64,000 nt of DNA from Escherichia coli (GTDB lineage Bacteria; Pseudomonadota; Gammaproteobacteria; Enterobacterales; Enterobacteriaceae). Below the pieces are notes generated by a model, which saw only the letters and a program-made list of their open reading frames with translations, made no database searches and was not told the origin of the DNA. Location: the NCBI RefSeq assembly GCF_016026235.1, contig NZ_CP065613.1; one strand, written 5' to 3'. Within the stretch, counting starts at the first letter, position 1; the number at the start of each line of letters is the position of its first letter. Both the position numbers and the translations under genes were made by a program. This document shows positions 33,416 through 43,251 of the stretch, in pieces.

Positions 33416-33985
33416 TCAGCCACGACTGCAGCCAAAGTTGCGCTCACCGGTGCAGTGAGCTTTGGTATGCTCCTTCGCCAGATAGTCAGCACGTTCCAGC
33501 ACTTGCTGAAAGCCGGTGTCATCATTACGCGCCAGCCACACCGCCGGCCAGGCCGGAAAATGCACCAGCGTGGCATGGCACCCGACATCCACTCCCAGGG
33601 CACTGCACCACGCCTGTTTAATCATCCCGGCCAGTGATCCCGGAGCGCGGTAATCACCGGCACGACACCAGGTATCCCGGTTGACCAGCAGCATCAGGTG
33701 ATAGTGTTTTTTACCTTTGCACTCCCCAAACTCCCGGGCCCAGACGTAATGCAGGGTTGTGGGATGCACGCGTTTACCTTCCCGATGCTTACGTTTCTGG
33801 TAAGCGTCGATTCGGGCTTTCAGGGCATTGATGAAGCGGGATATCACAGCTGCGTCCGTTGCTGCCGGTACATCCGGGAGACGCAGGTCAACCCGCAATG
33901 CCGTCAGGCGGGGATGAACATTCAGTGCGTGCCGCACCGTCTCACGAATACGTTGCTGCCAGAAGGGGTTGTATTTGTAGGTCAT
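33416..33985 (-). CDS. YagK/YfjJ-family (inovirus Gp2-like) prophage protein
   Basis: Product starting MTYKYNPFWQQRIRETV... resembles the CP4-type YagK/YfjJ family; assigned from memory only. Confidence 0.55.
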   Translation of the reverse strand: MTYKYNPFWQQRIRETVRHALNVHPRLTALRVDLRLPDVPAATDAAVISRFINALKARIDAYQKRKHREGKRVHPTTLHYVWAREFGECKGKKHYHLMLLVNRDTWCRAGDYRAPGSLAGMIKQAWCSALGVDVGCHATLVHFPAWPAVWLARNDDTGFQQVLERADYLAKEHTKAHCTGERNFGCSRG

Positions 33986-34183
33986 GGTTAAATCTCCGTA
34001 TGGTTCATACGGAATAGCCACGTCGTAAAAAATGCGCAGAGTCCCTGAAGTGACCTCCGGCAGGACACTGTCTCAGGCACTCTGTGATAACCCGAACGGT
34101 CGTCTCCGGACTGACGGTTGAATTTTCAGCGTTGTTTTTTAATGTAAAAAACCGGTTACGGGTAAGGCTGTGAGGAGGGAGTT

Positions 34184-34384: not shown

Positions 34385-35614
34385 GATAACGGTTCATGTA
34401 TCCCCTGAGCTGACAGTGTACCGTGTATATTAAGCGTAACCGACAGGTTCTCCTTCATACCATATTAAATTTTTCCAGGTATTGCCGCTGCCTTATTTCG
34501 TCCCATACAGGAAAACTCATCTGGGTTTCTGACAAATACGCGAAACTCACAGCCCCTCAATATCAACCACACGTTGTAAGCCGGTAATACCTGAAAATCA
34601 GCCTATTACCGCCCACGCCTCCGGCACCATTCCCTTTTGATTTCGAATTCTTTGTTGTCGCTATACCGCTTAATGTTCCCGGTCCTCCGGTGCAGATAAC
34701 ACCGGAGTCATCGTAGCGCTGCTTCAATATTCAGGTGACATATTTCCAGACAGAAGCCGGCGCGCGATCGTAAAGTTTGTTCATTGTCAGTTCTGCCAGC
34801 CGGTTGTCAACGGCAGAGTTAAAGGCTTCCAGCTCCGCAAGGGTAAGTTTATAACGCGTGTGGGAATTCACTTTTCCCGCGTCTCCTGACGTATTACGGG
34901 CTGCCACTTACCTGGTGTCCCGCAATACAGCCTTAGTGTTCCGTTATCGGGGATCCGGACGCACCGCAACAACCGGGGAAGTATTTCTGGTTTAGAGCAG
35001 TGTCAAGAGGGATTTCTCAGCCCCTCACTCACCGGCTCAGTCTCAAGGCAGGAGAATTAATACGCTCAGTTCATGTCTTATACAGGAATGGGCACAGGGG
35101 GAGCTAGCGTGTCACTGCTGATTTTACGCATCAGCGTTCATGTATCTGCACTCTGATACATGAACGATTCACAGCGCTCTGTTACCGGAGAGATTTACTC
35201 TCTTAGCTTACTCTGGCAAATCCTTTACGTTACTCTCTGATGACTTCTTATATTTATAATACCAATCAGACAGCCTTATCCCATCGGTGATATCAGTCTC
35301 CTCCTCGCCAGGAACGGGCTGACTCACTGTAACCACCTCCGAAAACAACTCTGCAATTATCAGAACGCCTGCTTCTCTCCCTGTCCTCACGAAAACTATC
35401 CCCTCTTTATCGCGCGTGCGTGCGGAAGCATCTTTTCGCAACAACCACCCAGTATACCGGTACGGCTCAGCCACCGCAACCTCCCCGTTTATCTCCTGGC
35501 GGTCACATTCCCGATTATTTTTTACGTTTCTCCCCGGTTGTTATGCCGGTGAAGGTGGCGCGCTGTTTTCATGACCACACCGGCTGGTTTAACAACATCC
35601 GGAGGAACATTCTC

Positions 35615-35821
35615 ATGGCTACCCCAGTTTCACTGATGGATGACCAGATGGTCGACATGGCATTTATCACTCAACTGACCGGCCTGACAGATAAGTGGTT
35701 TTACAGGCTCATCAGGGATGGGGCCTTTCCGGCTCCCATCAAGCTGGGCCGCAGCTCCCGCTGGCTGAAAAGTGAAGTGGAAGCCTGGCTGCAGGCGCGT
35801 ATTGCACAGCCCCGCCCGTAA
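35615..35821 (+). CDS. alpA: AlpA-family phage/prophage transcriptional regulator
   Basis: 68-aa product with the AlpA pattern ...ITQLTGLTDKWFYRLIRDGAFPAPIKLGRSSRWLKSEVEAWL... Confidence 0.7.
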   Translation: MATPVSLMDDQMVDMAFITQLTGLTDKWFYRLIRDGAFPAPIKLGRSSRWLKSEVEAWLQARIAQPRP

Positions 35822-35909
35822 TTTCTGACCGTTATCCGTTCACCCGCAGCAGACGTAATCCCCGGCCTGCCGGCGGCATTCTGCTGCCTGTTATATCCCC
35901 GTGAGGAAT

Positions 35910-36518
35910 ATGAAAATGAAACAACAGTATCAGACCCGCTACGAATGGCTCCACGAAAGCTACCAGAAATGGCTGACCGGCTTCACCCGGCACGCCGTAT
36001 CCTGGGGCGTGTGTCATCCGAATATCTACTACTTCCATAATCTGACGCCCGGTTGGGTGTCATTCAATGGTGAAAAACCGGAGATTGCCATCGTACCCCA
36101 GAGCCTGCACCGGCTGATTTATGGCCCTGACAAACGGGCCACGCCGCCCCTGGATGATGATCTGATCGTGAATTTATGCACCAGTGAACATCTGCTGGTT
36201 CATCATCCGATGCTGGAAGGCATTCTCCTGTCTGAATGTGAACGTCTGAGGCAGCGTTCTCTGGCAAATAAACTGATCAGCCTCTTCCGTCAGTTTGGTG
36301 GCACGGAGTTGCGCCTCAAACTGGTCTGGCTTTGCTGGCTTGATTTAATGACCGGAAACAGCCTTGAAGACTGGAAAGAGAACCTGAAACGGAAATCAGA
36401 AAAAGAGCTGGAGGAATGGATCATCAACCGTCAGAGGCAGAGCGCAGCACTGACGGATCTGATGGATCAGTACGTGCTCCTGGCATACCGCACAACGGTT
36501 GACGATAACCGCAACTGA
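35910..36518 (+). CDS. Hypothetical protein (island-encoded)
   Basis: About 200-aa ORF directly downstream of alpA with a Shine-Dalgarno (gagga) upstream of tandem ATGs; no recognisable domain. Confidence 0.5.
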   Translation: MKMKQQYQTRYEWLHESYQKWLTGFTRHAVSWGVCHPNIYYFHNLTPGWVSFNGEKPEIAIVPQSLHRLIYGPDKRATPPLDDDLIVNLCTSEHLLVHHPMLEGILLSECERLRQRSLANKLISLFRQFGGTELRLKLVWLCWLDLMTGNSLEDWKENLKRKSEKELEEWIINRQRQSAALTDLMDQYVLLAYRTTVDDNRN

Positions 36519-37718
36519 TGCCGGTTGCTTCCGGAAGGTGTGACAAAATACGGAAATGATGATGCTCCCGGCCCCGCATGCTCACCTGCAGAGCGTGTTC
36601 GTCGTCATCATACTGAGCCATGACGGGCGTCTTAAGGGCATCCTGTCATTGCTGAGCAGGCAACACCACCAGAGGAGCCACGGACAGGGATGTTCTTTAC
36701 AGCCCGATGCACGCCAGGTTCTCAGCAGACTGAATGTGCAGGTGCGGTTATTCACCAGAAATGGCATGCTGCGGTACATACCCATCCTGGTGACAATATG
36801 TACGTGGCGACAGCGATCCCGGCACTGTGGAAGAGACTCACTCAGCCTGCAGGATATTCTTTCCGGCATCCGGGAATGTCCGCCTGAATGCAAACAGGAT
36901 GATATTTGAATCCGTAATACTGTTCTTTCATCATAAATAATTTATGCAGATACAGTTAACCGTCACAGTAGCAGGTTTGTTTTCCCGGGAAATAATATCC
37001 GTCAGACTGATGCCGGAACATATCTGAAACACGTTATGATGTTTTGTTATCAGAAATGTTGTATATTCTTATCCGTGACGGCAGTTTAATGCCCTCTGGT
37101 ATCACCTGATAATGCATATCCTGCGATGATTCGTTATATTTACGGGACACGTCTCTTTTCATTGTGCTCCTTTTCAGACTTCATTTTCCATAAGTGTTCC
37201 CCGGCATAAAGGAGGTACCTTTCTGGCGTTTATAACTCTCTTTATCGGTGACGCCGGTAATACAGGGAATACCACACCGACAAACGAGGTATTAACGGAC
37301 GATATTTCAGTGTCCATAATTTTGCTGTCCGGTTAAATAACGTCAGTCTGCTGCCCTCTGACTGTAATCATCAAAGCCGGAATGCATACCGGGTTACAAC
37401 GTAAAAAAAGTGATGCTGGCCCCCGGTGCAGCTGGCGGGCGAAACATGTTTACCTTTCAATACCCCCTGTCTGCAGTCTCCACTCTTCCATCCTCTTAAG
37501 CTACGTCGGCCACATGAGTGCACTTCCATGATAACAGGTATTCCTGTCAGCATAACGAAGCCGGTTACCTTCCCTTCCTCCTGCATTTCCTATCAGAATG
37601 ACTGTACAGCGCGCAGATTGCCTTTTTATTGACCACCTTAATATACCATTATAAACTTCTTTTTATCATGTTATTATCACCTTATTATGTTTAATTTTTA
37701 AGCAGCCAGAGAAAGAGG

Positions 37719-38636
37719 ATGGTTCAGAAAATTTTGTCGGATAAGGTTATGAATGAAAGAACAAATGCGTATTACTCTTATTATCTTGGAGGGCGTAATA
37801 TCTCCGTACTGCCCCTTAATGTTTATGATCCCCCGGAACGTTTTATCGCTTACATAAAAAAAAACAGAGAAAATCTGAACATCACACTTTCAGATTTTGA
37901 ACTTGAACAAATAATTTCTGGTATGCGTCTGAAGGCCCTGGCCTTCCTGGTCCCCCTGGAAAAAATATCCTGGATCGCAGGCAGTGAACGCGCATGCTTA
38001 TTTTCCTGGTATCTGTTGATGCAGTTTATCCAGAATAACAGGGCAAAAATAAGCGCAGACTTGCTTCAAAAGAATAAACTGTATCTTAAAGAAGAGTATC
38101 TGGAAGGGAATGCCTTCCCGTCGGACTCATCGACACAGTTCAGACAAATACTCAGAGTTCTCGATATTCTTTCTGATAAGAATTTGCGGGATGAGTGGAT
38201 AATCCAGACCAAAGACAGATGGATACGGGCATTTAAATCAAAGAGTCCTTTCAGTTACCTCCTCCCGGAGAACGAACATGAATGCATATGGACATGGAAT
38301 TATTTGAAGGGAAAAAATATTGCACTGGAAAAACTGGCCAGTTTTCCTGATTCTGCTGATATTTACCACGCAATTCACCTTTCATTTGACATATGGGTTA
38401 CCTGTACACTCACCTCACCTGACGATATAAAAAATTTCAGAAACAGTTTCAATAAGGCCAAGGCGCAGCGCAAGTACAAAAAAATGCAGGAAGATAAAGT
38501 CAATGTACAGTTTTTTCTTGACGCAGAAACCAGGGCGCAGCTCAAAGAATTATCGAGGGTCAGAAGACTCAGTACCGGCGAAATGCTGCATGACCTGATT
38601 GTTGAAGAGTATAAAAGGTACCGACATTCCAGATAA
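37719..38636 (+). CDS. Hypothetical protein with a C-terminal ribbon-helix-helix-like motif
   Basis: 305-aa ORF, visibly AT-rich. C-terminus VNVQFFLDAETRAQLKELSRVRRLSTGEMLHDLIVEEY resembles an RHH (CopG/Arc-type) DNA-binding module. Confidence 0.5.
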   Translation: MVQKILSDKVMNERTNAYYSYYLGGRNISVLPLNVYDPPERFIAYIKKNRENLNITLSDFELEQIISGMRLKALAFLVPLEKISWIAGSERACLFSWYLLMQFIQNNRAKISADLLQKNKLYLKEEYLEGNAFPSDSSTQFRQILRVLDILSDKNLRDEWIIQTKDRWIRAFKSKSPFSYLLPENEHECIWTWNYLKGKNIALEKLASFPDSADIYHAIHLSFDIWVTCTLTSPDDIKNFRNSFNKAKAQRKYKKMQEDKVNVQFFLDAETRAQLKELSRVRRLSTGEMLHDLIVEEYKRYRHSR

Positions 38637-38905
38637 TTTCAGACATATATTATCTCCGTGAGTCCCCCGCCACCTTTCCGGTGTGCGGGGTTTTTGTCTT
38701 TTTTCACCGGGAATACATGTATGAATCCGTCTGATGCCATTGAGGCAATTGAAAAACCGCTCTCCTCCCTGCCTTACTCACTTTCCCGTCACATCCTGGA
38801 ACATCTGCGCAAACTCACCAGTCACGAACCCGTGATTGGCATTATGGGTAAAAGCGGGGCCGGTAAATCCTCACTCTGTAATGCACTGTTTCAGGGGGAG
38901 GTCAC

Positions 38906-40199
38906 CTGAGGGATCCCCAGAAAATTTAGTAAACCATTATCATATTGGTATACCGTTGCTGTAGAACTTTCAGCCCTGCGTCAAGTGACAGTGTGTTTAG
39001 TATGAGTGGAGAATGTCGAATCACATTCTCCGCCAGTTTTAATAACGAGATGACTCGCCTGTGCTTCACTGTATTTGCCTGATATTTATGATGTATCCCT
39101 TTGTTTTCCAGGCTGAAACCGCTTAACCACATAATGATACTGGCTAATGTTGCGATCAGACTCAATACCGTGACCCGCCCGGATGAATGACTGGCACCAA
39201 ACCGTAATCCAAATCCCCAGCGAGGATTTTTTTCATCCCTGAAATTTTGCTCAATTTGCATTCTACGGCTGTATAATTTCATTACCTGTTTTGGCGAGAA
39301 CTCAGTACTGTTTGTGAAAATAAACCATGGTGATTTCCCGGCAGTACGAGCTTTAGCCGTCACCGATGGTCTGGTTGCTCTTTCCTTCGAGCGTTTAAAT
39401 CAACGACCTTTAGGCTTACTTTTATAAAGATAAAAATGCCCTTCATGTTGTGCATTTTTATCTCGACCCAGCAGGCCTTCACCTAAATAAATTGCTGTCG
39501 TTGATGCTTTTGTGCCTGAGTCCGACACCTTTTCCCAGCCATTACCAACATTGTAATAATGATTGCCCAGTACCCGGCAAATATAGGTCCAGCCACGGGA
39601 GCGGAGCTGTTGGAACCATCGCCCCTGAAAACCGGCATCTGTAATAACAATGACATCAGTCCCGGGGGAAAAGCACTCAGCAAGCGATTCCAGAAAACGC
39701 TCATGTACATCTGCATTCGCTGTCTGTGATGATGGAACGACACAACTCATCAACGGTAAAGAACGCCCGTCACATGCCAGGCTTGCCCGCAAAAGCTGAA
39801 AACGAGAGGCATGATAAGCACTCCAGTCAATGAGTATCACAACACGAGACATTCCCCGCGTAATCTTTTGGGTAATTCGCTGAAAAATGGTGGAAACCTC
39901 ATTTTGCAAATGTCGATTCCCCAACAGTCGATCCACCCGCTTTATTTTGTTTTTAACTGATGCCGTACCGGTTAAATGACGCCCGATACTGGTAAGTGTG
40001 AGGGAAGCGCCATTTATTACAGCATTAGTTGCGTCAATCAGTGATTTTTGACGGTAAAGATGCAAAGGGGCCAGTATGTTGTTAAGGAAATTTTGGCATA
40101 ATGAACGTGCAGGCATAGTGGTGATCTCCTTGAAATTGTTAGCACAATCAATTAGATCACATCTCACTATGCCTGTCTTGTTTTCTGGGGATTCCTCAG
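38906..40199 (-). mobile_element. IS10-like IS4-family insertion sequence inside yeeP
   Basis: Terminal inverted repeats CTGAGGGATCCCCAGAAAA (38906-38924) and CTGAGGAATCCCCAGAAAA (reverse complement of 40181-40199). Flanking direct repeat GGGAGGTCAC at 38896-38905 and 40200-40209. Confidence 0.7.
38926..40116 (-). pseudogene. IS4-family (IS10-like) DDE transposase, in two frames
   Basis: Segments resemble the IS10 transposase (NKIKRVDRLLGNRHL; VIVITDAGFQGRWF; YSRRMQIEQNFRDEKNPRWGFGLRF) but are split between ORFs 39400-40116 and 38926-39363. Confidence 0.7.
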
Positions 40200-41009
40200 G
40201 GGAGGTCACCCCGGTCAGTGATGTTCACGCCGGCACCCGGGAAGTGCGGCGCTTCCGTCTGAGTGGCCACGGTCACAGCATGATTATCACTGACCTGCCC
40301 GGGGTGGGCGAGAGCCGGGACAGGGATGCAGAGTATGAAGCCCTGTACCGTGACATTCTGCCTGAACTTGACCTGGTACTGTGGCTGATTAAAGCCGATG
40401 ACCGTGCCCTGTCTGTGGATGAGTATTTCTGGCGACACATCCTGCACCGGGGACATCAGCAGGTGCTGTTTGTGGTGACGCAGGCCGACAAAACGGAGCC
40501 CTGCCATGAATGGGATATGGCCGGCATTCAGCCTTCTCCCGCACAGGCACAGAACATTCGTGAGAAAACAGATGCGGTATTCCGGCTGTTCCGGCCCGTA
40601 CATCCGGTTGTGGCCGTATCGGCCTGCACCGGCTGGGAACTGGATACGCTGGTCAGTGCGCTCATGACAGCGCTTCCCGACCATGCCGCCAGTCCCCTGA
40701 TGACCCGCCTGCAGGACGAGCTGCGCACGGAATCTGTCCGGTCTCAGGCCCGTGAACAGTTTACCGGTGCGGTGGACCGGATATTTGACACGGCGGAGAG
40801 CGTCTGTATTGCCTCTGTTGCACGCACGGTTCTGCGTGCCGTCCGTGACTCGGTGGTCTCTGTTGCCCGCGCTGTATGGAACTGGATTTTCTTCTGAACA
40901 GTCTGCCAGGGGAAATGCCTGATTACATTGCGTTAACCAACTGAAAACATGATACACCCCCCTCATATCCACCTCTTTCTCTTGCGTGACTGCCTTGCTG
41001 TTAATAGAA

Positions 41010-41060
41010 TAAAACGATCGATAAAACAGGTATCGATCGTTGATATCGATCGTTTATAGT
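41010..41060 (+). promoter_or_regulatory. flu (agn43) phase-variation switch: three GATC Dam sites in the OxyR-binding region
   Basis: GATC at 41016, 41035 and 41048, clustered about 220-250 bp upstream of the flu start codon, as described for the agn43 regulatory region. Confidence 0.6.
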
Positions 41061-43251
41061 GGTTAATGGCCTGCGAAAAGGCAGCTGAATCTCTTCATCA
41101 TGCAGAACGGAATTGCACACAACGGACTGATACTTCTCTGGCGGATGAGAGAGGGGAAGCATTTATGTCCGGGAAAAACCACTTTATCTGACCATGCTGT
41201 TTTGTACCTGCCGGTATCCACATTTGTGGGTACCGGCTTTTTTATTCACCCTCTGTAAGGAAAAGCTGATGAAACGACATCTGAACACCAGCTACAGGCT
41301 GGTATGGAATCACATTACGGGCACCCTGGTGGTGGCTTCCGAACTGGCGCGCTCACGGGGAAAACGCACCGGTGTGGCGGTTGCGCTGTCTCTTGCTGCT
41401 GTCACGTCAGTCCCGGTACTGGCTGCTGACACGGTCGTACAGGCGGGAGAAACCGTGAGCGGCGGAACACTGACAAATCATGACAACCAGATTGTCTTCG
41501 GTACGGCCAACGGAATGACCATCAGTACCGGTCTGGAGTATGGGCCGGATAACGAGGCCAATACCGGCGGACAATGGATACAAAATGGCGGTATCGCCAA
41601 CAACACTACTGTCACCGGTGGTGGTCTTCAGAGAGTGAATGCTGGAGGAAGCGTTTCAGACACGGTTATCAGTGCCGGAGGCGGACAGAGCCTTCAGGGG
41701 CAGGCAGTGAACACCACTCTGAACGGCGGTGAGCAGTGGGTACATGAAGGCGGGATTGCAACGGTTACCGTCATTAATGAGAAGGGCTGGCAGGCCGTCA
41801 AATCCGGCGCAATGGCAACCGACACGGTTGTGAATACCGGCGCGGAAGGGGGACCGGATGCAGAAAATGGTGATACCGGGCAGACCGTCTACGGAGATGC
41901 CGTACGCACCACCATCAATAAAAATGGTCGTCAGATTGTGGCTGCTGAAGGAACGGCAAATACCACTGTGGTTTATGCCGGCGGCGACCAGACTGTACAT
42001 GGTCACGCACTGGATACCACGCTGAATGGGGGGTACCAGTATGTGCACAACGGCGGTACGGCGTCTGGCACTGTTGTAAACAGTGACGGCTGGCAGATTA
42101 TCAAGGAAGGTGGTCTGGCGGATTTCACCACCGTTAACCAGAAAGGCAAACTGCAGGTGAACGCCGGTGGTACCGCCACACATGTCACCCTGAAACAGGG
42201 TGGAGCACTGGTTACCAGTACTGCGGCAACGGTTCTTGGCAGCAACCGTTTGGGCAATTTCACGGTGGAAAACGGTAAGGCTGACGGCGTTGTTCTGGAG
42301 TCCGGCGGTCGCCTAGATGTACTGGAAGGCCATTCAGCGCAGAAAACACGGGTGGATGACGGCGGAACCCTGGCAGTGTCTGCCGGTGGTAAGGCAACAG
42401 GTGTCACCATGACATCCGGTGGTGCCCTGATTGCAGACAGTGGTGCCACTGTTGAGGGGACCAATGCCAGCGGTAAGTTCAGTATTGATGGCATATCCGG
42501 TCAGGCCAGCGGCCTGCTGCTGGAAAATGGCGGCAGCTTTACGGTTAATGCCGGGGGACAGGCCAGCAACACCACTGTCGGACATCGTGGAACACTGATG
42601 CTGGCTGCCGGGGGAAGTCTGAGTGGCAGAACACAGCTCAGTAAAGGCGCCAGCATGGTACTGAATGGTGATGTGGTCAGTACCGGCGATATTGTTAACG
42701 CAGGGGAGATTTACTTTGACAATCAGACAACACCGGATGCCGTACTGAGCCGTGCTGTTGCAAAAGGCAACGCCCCGGTAACGTTCCATAAACTGACAAC
42801 CAGTAACCTCACCGGTCAGGGTGGCACCATCAATATGCGTGTTCGCCTTGATGGCAGCAATGCCTCTGACCAGCTGGTGATTAATGGTGGTCAGGCAACC
42901 GGCAAAACCTGGCTTGCGTTTACAAATGTCGGAAACAGCAACCTCGGGGTGGCAACCACCGGACAGGGTATCCGGGTTGTGGATGCACAGAATGGCGCCA
43001 CCACAGAAGAAGGTGCGTTTGCCCTGAGTCGCCCGCTTCAGGCCGGCGCCTTTAACTACACCCTGAACCGTGACAGCGATGAAGACTGGTACCTGCGCAG
43101 TGAAAATGCTTATCGTGCTGAAGTCCCCCTGTATACATCCATGTTGACACAGGCAATGGACTATGATGCGTATTACCGTGAAGGAGATCGGTGAGTAACA
43201 TCGATGGAGATCGGTTCGTGTCACTTTCACAGAACCGTTTTTAAATTACCT

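Follow-up and report, generated by a model that had tools for sequence, protein, structure and literature searches.

Repressors of the CopG, Arc, Mnt and AmrZ type are proteins of 45–110 residues that carry a ribbon-helix-helix (RHH) at or near the N-terminus. CopG of the rolling-circle plasmid pMV158 represses the copG-repB promoter. RstR of the filamentous phage CTX-phi is a helix-turn-helix protein, encoded by a variable gene that lies beside rstA. MatP binds dispersed matS sites in the Ter region, which have the geometry GTGAC-RNY-GTCAC, and its coiled coil mediates tetramerisation and contact with ZapB. Here we describe an island protein encoded in a 64,000-nucleotide stretch of Escherichia coli DNA (contig NZ_CP065613.1), hereafter the window, and compare it with these systems; FAM is our label for the protein and for its family. 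We lean towards reading FAM as an autoregulated, allele-specific regulator of its island, rather than as a partner dedicated to the GTPase encoded next to it. The gene is as follows:

37719–38636, plus strand: FAM gene, encoding a 305-aa island protein (UniProt name 'Ybl124', RefSeq WP_000250227.1); open reading frame, annotation by the Prokaryotic Genome Annotation Pipeline (PGAP), and orthologues

The open reading frame gives 305 residues with the C-terminus ...VNVQFFLDAETRAQLKELSRVRRLSTGEMLHDLIVEEYKRYRHSR. In E. coli UMNF18, PGAP calls a gene with identical frame and ends a 'hypothetical protein' (WP_000250227.1); 84 nt further on comes an uninterrupted gene for a 'GTPase family protein', and after that Ag43. 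In the window the stop codon ends at 38636 and the ATG of a yeeP-type GTPase stands at 38721, again leaving 84 nt between two genes of the same direction. The GC content of the FAM gene (0.406) is below that of the window (0.491) and that of the GTPase (0.584). An initial annotation, made from the sequence alone, had described an AT-rich 305-aa gene just upstream of yeeP and co-directional with it, and both descriptions hold. Of 5426 complete E. coli genomes, 1348 contain 80% or more of a query that covers the FAM gene.

Full-length orthologues with 49–78% identity occur in Salmonella, Serratia fonticola, Enterobacter mori and Edwardsiella. When 1.84 billion cluster representatives were searched exhaustively with phmmer, 162 matched at E ≤ 1e-3, most of them ~300 residues long and 20–32% identical, aligned over residues ~60–300. 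The family comprises ~160 clusters at 50% identity, across Gammaproteobacteria. Relatives found with Foldseek in the AlphaFold database (AFDB50) are all uncharacterised, a few bearing the names 'Ybl124' or 'CopG family', and come from many Gammaproteobacteria and one Alcaligenes. The orthologues, the 162 cluster matches and a confident AlphaFold2 model exclude a chance open reading frame; FAM is a real gene.

Searches of Pfam, NCBIfam, PADLOC and PHROGs with the single FAM sequence gave nothing significant, an Arc-like PHROG match having E=0.074. The sole matches of the single sequence in the PDB were to a bromodomain, which we judged to be chance. Among 50,697 phage genome records there was no family member, and IMG/VR held one family locus among 2.9 million contigs. 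Full-text literature searches returned no paper on the family. FAM is a previously undescribed family with a new architecture, in which repeated MatP-type helical domains are joined to an RHH.

Helical repeats, the RHH and the relation to MatP

The AlphaFold2 model, built from an alignment of 109 family sequences (A1), is all-helical, with a predicted local distance difference test score (pLDDT) of 91 and a predicted template-modelling score (pTM) of 0.81. The protein divides into four parts:

37719–37958, plus strand: N-terminal helical region, residues 1–80, with helices at residues 8–24, 39–48 and 59–76; R14 and Y..YL are nearly invariant
37959–38243, plus strand: helical repeat R1, residues ~81–175, with the motif F.WI....RAC.W.W ... 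P....R...I..FD......K..L..LK..W (hhalign, consensus)
38244–38492, plus strand: helical repeat R2, residues ~176–258, which aligns with the MatP N-terminal domain
38493–38633, plus strand: RHH module, residues ~259–305, with strand VNVQFFLD and helices at 269–282 and 286–304; the protein ends there

The C-terminal ~47 residues comprise a strand-helix-helix unit, which in the RHH superfamily (CopG/Arc/MetJ) has ~45 residues, and the protein stops 1–5 residues past RHH helix B, with no coiled coil. Pfam matches at E ≤ 0.1 assign RepB-RCR_reg to 23 of the 109 members and RHH_1 to 12; at E ≤ 1e-3, four members match RepB-RCR_reg, the scores of the RHH matches being weak overall. The family profile matches SvtR (E=0.01) and CopG (E=0.25–0.3) in the PDB. 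The C-terminus of FAM is a ribbon-helix-helix fold. The initial annotation had guessed at such a module, and the guess survives in the Pfam matches of family members, in the SvtR and CopG profile matches and in the fold of the AlphaFold2 model. Unlike repressors of the CopG/Arc/Mnt/AmrZ type, FAM places ~255 residues of repeated helical domains before its RHH.

Those ~255 residues had been taken to lack any recognisable feature, a view that the internal repeats overturn. R1 (residues ~82–172) and R2 (~177–252) are homologous, with an hhalign probability of 98.7% and E=2.2e-16 over 73 columns, and have in common the motif F.W[IL]....C.W.W.Y ... FD.W ... K..L..LK..W. Residues 1–60 match the repeats with 59–81% probability over ~20 columns only (residues 8–27), a segment that may be a degenerate third copy.

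With a profile of residues 176–305, spanning R2 and the RHH (A3), we searched 177,635 PDB sequences. The best match was MatP (7nyw_I, E=5.9e-4, profile positions 11–119 aligned with MatP 8–128), and E. coli MatP 4d8j matched with E=0.013. By hhalign, R2 plus RHH matched MatP with 89.5% probability over 107 columns; QC.WAW.Y of R2 corresponds to GWKWKY of MatP, and KAW.QKK.R to TIRARRKRH. The two proteins appear to have their parts in the same order, MatP (PF06303 and PF17414; PDB 3VEA, 4D8J and 7NYW) comprising a helical N-terminal domain with W-x-W-x-Y in its first helix, a basic helix and then the RHH. FAM differs from MatP in lacking a C-terminal coiled coil and in repeating the helical domain once or twice more in front. 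Its gene also belongs to mobile islands and plasmids and varies from allele to allele, whereas MatP is a single conserved chromosomal gene.

Other comparisons weigh against a close kinship. The Pfam MatP match to FAM is weak (residues 186–220, E=0.76) and was not detected in other members, and R2 alone reaches an hhalign probability of 22%. Compared with a single MatP sequence, hhalign aligned the RHH only; our search for MatP homologues gave just ~99% identical E. coli sequences, and the MatP side of these comparisons is not a diverse profile. Given the weak Pfam score, the 22% for R2 alone and the absent coiled coil, we regard FAM as probably a distant relative of MatP, and as neither MatP itself nor an orthologue of it.

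Candidate sites and exchange of alleles

Many family members have a short palindrome just upstream of the FAM gene. CTACGTAG, with at most one mismatch, occurs within 200 bp upstream of FAM in 20 of 28 loci, a density of 4.46 per kb compared with 0.15 per kb elsewhere, and ACTACGTA was the top de novo 8-mer, present in 9 of 25 non-redundant loci and above the maximum of 200 shuffles. The spacing between the half-sites is restricted. ACTAC-N0-GTAGT is enriched upstream ~180-fold and ACTAC-N3-GTAGT ~110-fold, while no upstream site has a spacer of 2 or 4 and just one has a spacer of 1. In loci fetched after the motif had been fixed, the palindrome recurred in four of six, two of them perfect. 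Variants of the site track the strand of the RHH: the strand LNTY goes with CTACGTAG, ACSFVL with CTACTTAG, and PLNVNI of a sequence type 131 (ST131) allele with ATCACGTGTGAT. The candidate sites named for individual alleles are AATCACGTGTGATT for this ST131 allele and ACTACGTAGT or ACTAC-N3-GTAGT for an 'LNTY' member. These palindromes, and the variants that follow the strand, lend indirect support to the idea that FAM dimerises and that its paired strands read the major groove of DNA.

Like matS, many of the palindromes have a 5+3+5 geometry, but they differ in sequence from matS (GTGACRNYGTCAC) and are apparently single and local. We found no enrichment of the palindromes elsewhere in FAM islands, which favours a local operator over a dispersed set of the matS kind.

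In the clade to which the window belongs, other upstream sequences stand out:

37670–37699, plus strand: conserved block GTTATTATCACCTTATTATGTTTAATTTTT (also as GTTATTATCACCTTATTATGTTTAAT), TTATTAT-CACC-TTATTAT, at −49 to −20; candidate promoter or operator
37634–37688, plus strand: two exact CACCTTAWTAT copies (37634–37644 and 37678–37688), 44 bp apart, the only exact matches in the 64-kb window

The block is the only well-conserved upstream stretch among E. coli, Serratia, Edwardsiella, Enterobacter and one metagenome orthologue, whose proteins are 39–69% identical. The two CACCTTAWTAT copies flank a promoter-like TTGACC-17-TAAACT (37629–37657). Separately, an inverted repeat, ATCACCTTAT / ATAAGGTTAT (37676–37685 and 37741–37750; −43/+22), brackets the FAM start codon; it is partly conserved, Edwardsiella having a different pair (−51/+26), Serratia a partial one, and Enterobacter and the metagenome orthologue none.

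E. coli has at least three FAM alleles, with ~18% identity, in the same slot before the GTPase. Allele 2, from ST131, is a 290-aa 'hypothetical protein' with 18% identity and a 99.5% hhalign probability, found in 359 genomes; in other strains the slot is filled by allele 3, which has 383 aa (hhalign 98.8%). Alignment of the window with the ST131 island by blastn gave 93% identity over 35249–36841, no homology over 36842–38624 and 98.6% identity from 38625 onwards, so that the right edge of homology falls 12 nt before the FAM stop codon. This pattern of breaks shows that the FAM gene and ~880 bp upstream are exchanged as a single cassette:

36842–38624, no strand assigned: variable cassette of the FAM gene and ~880 bp upstream, defined by blastn against ST131 island L038; GC content 0.417

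The ~880 bp form the right-hand part of a 1.2-kb stretch (36519–37718), between a 205-aa gene and FAM, in which we found neither a trace of any known island gene family nor an Rfam match.

The arrangement recalls RstR in its logic only. In both, a variable regulator gene adjoins a gpII-type Rep gene, mostly divergently, and alleles are swapped as cassettes with their upstream DNA while the flanks are conserved. FAM has no sequence or fold relationship to RstR, and an immunity role for FAM is an analogy only. The logic would likewise be comparable to that of CopG beside repB.

As an autoregulated, allele-specific island regulator, FAM would dimerise through its RHH and the dimer would bind a short site immediately before the FAM gene. 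This site would be the ACTAC-N0/3-GTAGT palindrome in many members, and the TTATTAT-CACC-TTATTAT block and CACCTTAWTAT repeats are the candidates in the clade of the window. FAM would control its own promoter and probably adjacent units, on the side of the AlpA and Gp2 genes described below and possibly in the rightward operon, acting as a maintenance or 'immunity'-type regulator of an integrative island of the integrase/AlpA/Gp2 type. The GTPase would be the next island module in enteric lineages, with no obligate partnership. Dimerisation, DNA binding at the candidate sites, repression and any effect on excision or replication are inferences.

Several points weigh against this proposal. The clade of the window, with the strand NVQFF, lacks the palindrome, and its conserved upstream block could be a mere promoter. 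Of the 25 discovery loci, 12 have no strict ACTAC/GTAGT site. The motif was found on the same loci in which it was first counted, the independent set being the six later loci. Consensus promoter scans of two loci placed no plus-strand promoter on the palindromes, and some other island-encoded protein could be what binds them. For a simple repressor the ~255 helical residues are many, and they may serve a different purpose, for instance sensing or contact with other proteins. Finally, the persistence of three alleles before the GTPase in E. coli leaves room for a functional link.

Island neighbours on either side of FAM

On its left, FAM in the window lies beyond two genes that recur with the family:

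35616–35821, plus strand: AlpA-type helix-turn-helix gene, co-directional with FAM here and divergent in most other loci
33416–34021, minus strand: inovirus Gp2 / YagK-YfjJ family gene, the most constant partner of FAM elsewhere (PGAP name; PF11726 and PF23343 on homologues)

We compared 26 loci from identified genomes, found with a 12-sequence sub-alignment, labelling neighbouring open reading frames by profiles from annotated island genes. The nearest recognised upstream gene is AlpA or an inovirus-Gp2/YagK-YfjJ homologue in all 25 loci with upstream sequence, and it is divergent from FAM in 24 of the 25. Among six contexts added later, five have an AlpA or Gp2/YfjJ neighbour upstream, the sixth (L054) having no called neighbour. 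Klebsiella IncFIB/HI1B plasmids also carry a FAM copy with AlpA or Gp2/YfjJ upstream and no GTPase. FAM is at once a core gene and a strongly variable one in these genomic islands, whose class is widespread.

In Vibrio, Pseudoalteromonas, Shewanella, Photobacterium, Psychromonas, Amphritea and Kushneria, FAM lies in 6–7-kb islands that lack the GTPase and contain a P4-type integrase, FAM, Gp2/YfjJ, an integrase fragment, RadC and AlpA. In the minimal marine examples (L010, L012–L016, L021, L023, L025, L047, L051 and L053) FAM is convergent with int, the two genes overlapping by 8 nt in L012 and L013. These islands resemble PICMI and other AlpA-containing satellites, which are small islands with a P4-type integrase and AlpA in marine Gammaproteobacteria. 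The defining genes of PICMIs are int, alpA and a DUF3987/DUF5906 primase (PMC10803314). We rejected an assignment to PICMI, as the FAM islands carry a Gp2/YfjJ-type gene, RadC and FAM in place of the primase; the near absence of the FAM family from viral collections also sets it apart from these satellites. Two proteins considered as family members were likewise rejected, namely K-12 YfjH, which occupies the same place and adjoins intA and alpA, and WP_001313577.1. The 205-aa hypothetical protein beside AlpA in the window (35901–36518) is conserved in islands of E. coli, Serratia, Enterobacter and S. liquefaciens, and has no match in Pfam, NCBIfam, PADLOC or PHROG.

The constancy of the Gp2/YfjJ neighbour bears on the main rival explanation, in which FAM is an accessory DNA-binding factor for a Gp2/YfjJ-like protein of the rolling-circle Rep or HUH type. 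FAM would then act at an origin or transfer origin in the Gp2–FAM intergenic region and assist when the excised island is nicked or replicated, in the way that the RHH proteins TraY, TraM, PcfF and NikA do in relaxosomes. The adjacency and the generic RHH fold matches are what this explanation has in its favour, though any RHH matches TraY, TraM, PcfF and NikA structurally. In E. coli, moreover, the FAM cassette is exchanged independently of the segment with AlpA and the 205-aa protein, and more than 3 kb separate it from the Gp2 gene. It is the FAM start, and not the Gp2 gene, that the palindrome lies near, and no nick site or hairpin origin was identified. We consider such an accessory role unlikely.

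A-rich, iteron-like direct repeats, AAAACACTTTTA and CACATAAAAC, lie between Gp2 and FAM, 60–160 nt upstream of the FAM start, in L015, L016, L019, L020, L021 and L023; they are possible Rep-binding or extra FAM-binding sites.

To the right of FAM in the window are the following features:

38639–38705, plus strand: GTPase leader, with box TCAGACATATATTAT (38639–38653), GC hairpin (38665–38690) and U-run (38691–38705); conservation, fold and terminator scan
38721–40897, plus strand: yeeP-type GTPase, split by an IS10-like element; GTPase family matches

The initial annotation had taken FAM and the GTPase for a plausible two-component defence or regulatory unit. Such a unit would be an anti-phage system or a regulator-plus-effector pair. 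The expected co-occurrence is real in part: the two genes stand adjacent and co-directional in E. coli, Serratia, Edwardsiella, Enterobacter, Providencia and Proteus, and they do so across three E. coli alleles as divergent as ~18% identity. The GTPase follows FAM only in islands of Enterobacterales and Morganellaceae, and in most lineages the family occurs without it. Within the 26 genome loci, the GTPase directly follows FAM in five, all from Providencia, Proteus or Serratia liquefaciens; it also follows the close orthologues of E. coli, Serratia, Edwardsiella and Enterobacter. FAM occurs without it in the other 21, in all six later metagenome or genome contexts and in the Klebsiella plasmid copy. 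The GTPase in turn occurs without FAM. Complete E. coli genomes hold 9711 copies of the yeeP-type GTPase in 4538 of 5426 genomes, as against 1348 genomes with FAM allele 1 and 359 with allele 2. In K-12 CP4-57 the yfjP GTPase comes after rnlAB, with no FAM, and in O121 and other strains the slot holds insertion sequence (IS) debris, an unrelated gene or nothing.

The sequence between the two genes also separates them. The box TCAGAyAkATATyAT, the GC hairpin and the U-run precede the GTPase ATG in all contexts examined, including K-12 yfjP, save that Providencia and Proteus keep the box and have no hairpin. This ~85-nt leader is the same whatever lies upstream (window 38639–38720, and L002, L005, L007, L008, L037, L038, L039 and L040). 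The hairpin folds at −28 kcal/mol (z = −3.2) and exists in two unrelated sequence versions with compensatory changes; RNAalifold gave no structure once the hairpin-less Providencia and Proteus sequences were included, and the leader matched no Rfam family. It looks like an attenuator or terminator in the 5′ leader of the GTPase. The autonomy of this leader and the cassette boundary at the FAM stop codon argue for juxtaposed modules and not a coupled two-gene operon; judged by sequence, FAM–GTPase is a modular juxtaposition within a lineage-specific island layout. Nor does the pair resemble a type II toxin-antitoxin system with an RHH antitoxin, FAM having 305 aa and a C-terminal RHH, and 84 nt with a terminator-like hairpin separating it from the next gene, whereas such an antitoxin is small, has its RHH at the N-terminus and is translationally coupled to its toxin gene. 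Neither FAM allele 1 nor FAM allele 2 nor the GTPase falls into a PADLOC family; the GTPase shows only partial, generic and weak G-domain matches to LeoBC and LeoA. A dedicated unit is thus improbable, each gene occurring without the other, with a cassette boundary and a separate GTPase leader between them.

Other features of the rightward segment are recorded here. The IS10-like (IS4-family) element that splits yeeP spans 38907–40198, has a frameshifted transposase and is flanked by a duplication of about GGGGAGGTCACC. An Rfam match to IS102 RNA (isrC) lies at 41014–41250, between the GTPase and Ag43 (flu), as in K-12 CP4-44. In Edwardsiella tarda and some E. coli (L039 7196–11561; L041 and L044 from ~3690; L005 10697–13938), a dynamin-family protein replaces Ag43 after the GTPase, and in E. 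coli O121 (L039) an RdcB-family protein and then a patatin-like phospholipase come next. The four-gene set with GTPase and dynamin looks like a candidate membrane-directed or defence module.

That FAM is a MatP-like architectural protein, bridging or condensing island DNA by, for example, pairing its ends or organising the excised circle, is very improbable, for although it has colinear similarity to MatP, a 13-bp 5+3+5 palindrome of matS geometry and extra helical domains that could contact DNA or each other, it ends with the RHH, without the coiled coil for tetramerisation, and its palindrome shows no enrichment elsewhere in the islands. Both this and the dedicated GTPase unit are less likely than the accessory role beside Gp2.

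Implications for island control and for MatP

Islands of the CP4-44/CP4-57 type are found in most E. coli genomes and carry adhesins, toxin-antitoxin systems and defence genes as cargo, yet the control of their silencing, excision and replication is poorly understood. Placed at the junction of the AlpA/Gp2 genes and the cargo operon, FAM is an obvious candidate for that control. It offers a concrete, testable handle, with defined protein alleles and defined candidate sites. The family also merits a profile in domain databases, its ~160 clusters being labelled at present only 'hypothetical protein'.

The link to MatP raises the question of the origin of a chromosome organiser that is limited to a few gammaproteobacterial orders. 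We speculate, as a tentative idea that is itself unlikely, that the FAM family could be the mobile-element counterpart of MatP, either a source pool or an offshoot. Its members would then be allele-specific 'immunity' repressors, each with its own palindrome, that keep an unrecognised but very common class of integrase/AlpA/Gp2 rolling-circle islands, including the CP4-44-type E. coli islands with Ag43 and CbtA toxins, silent and mutually exclusive.

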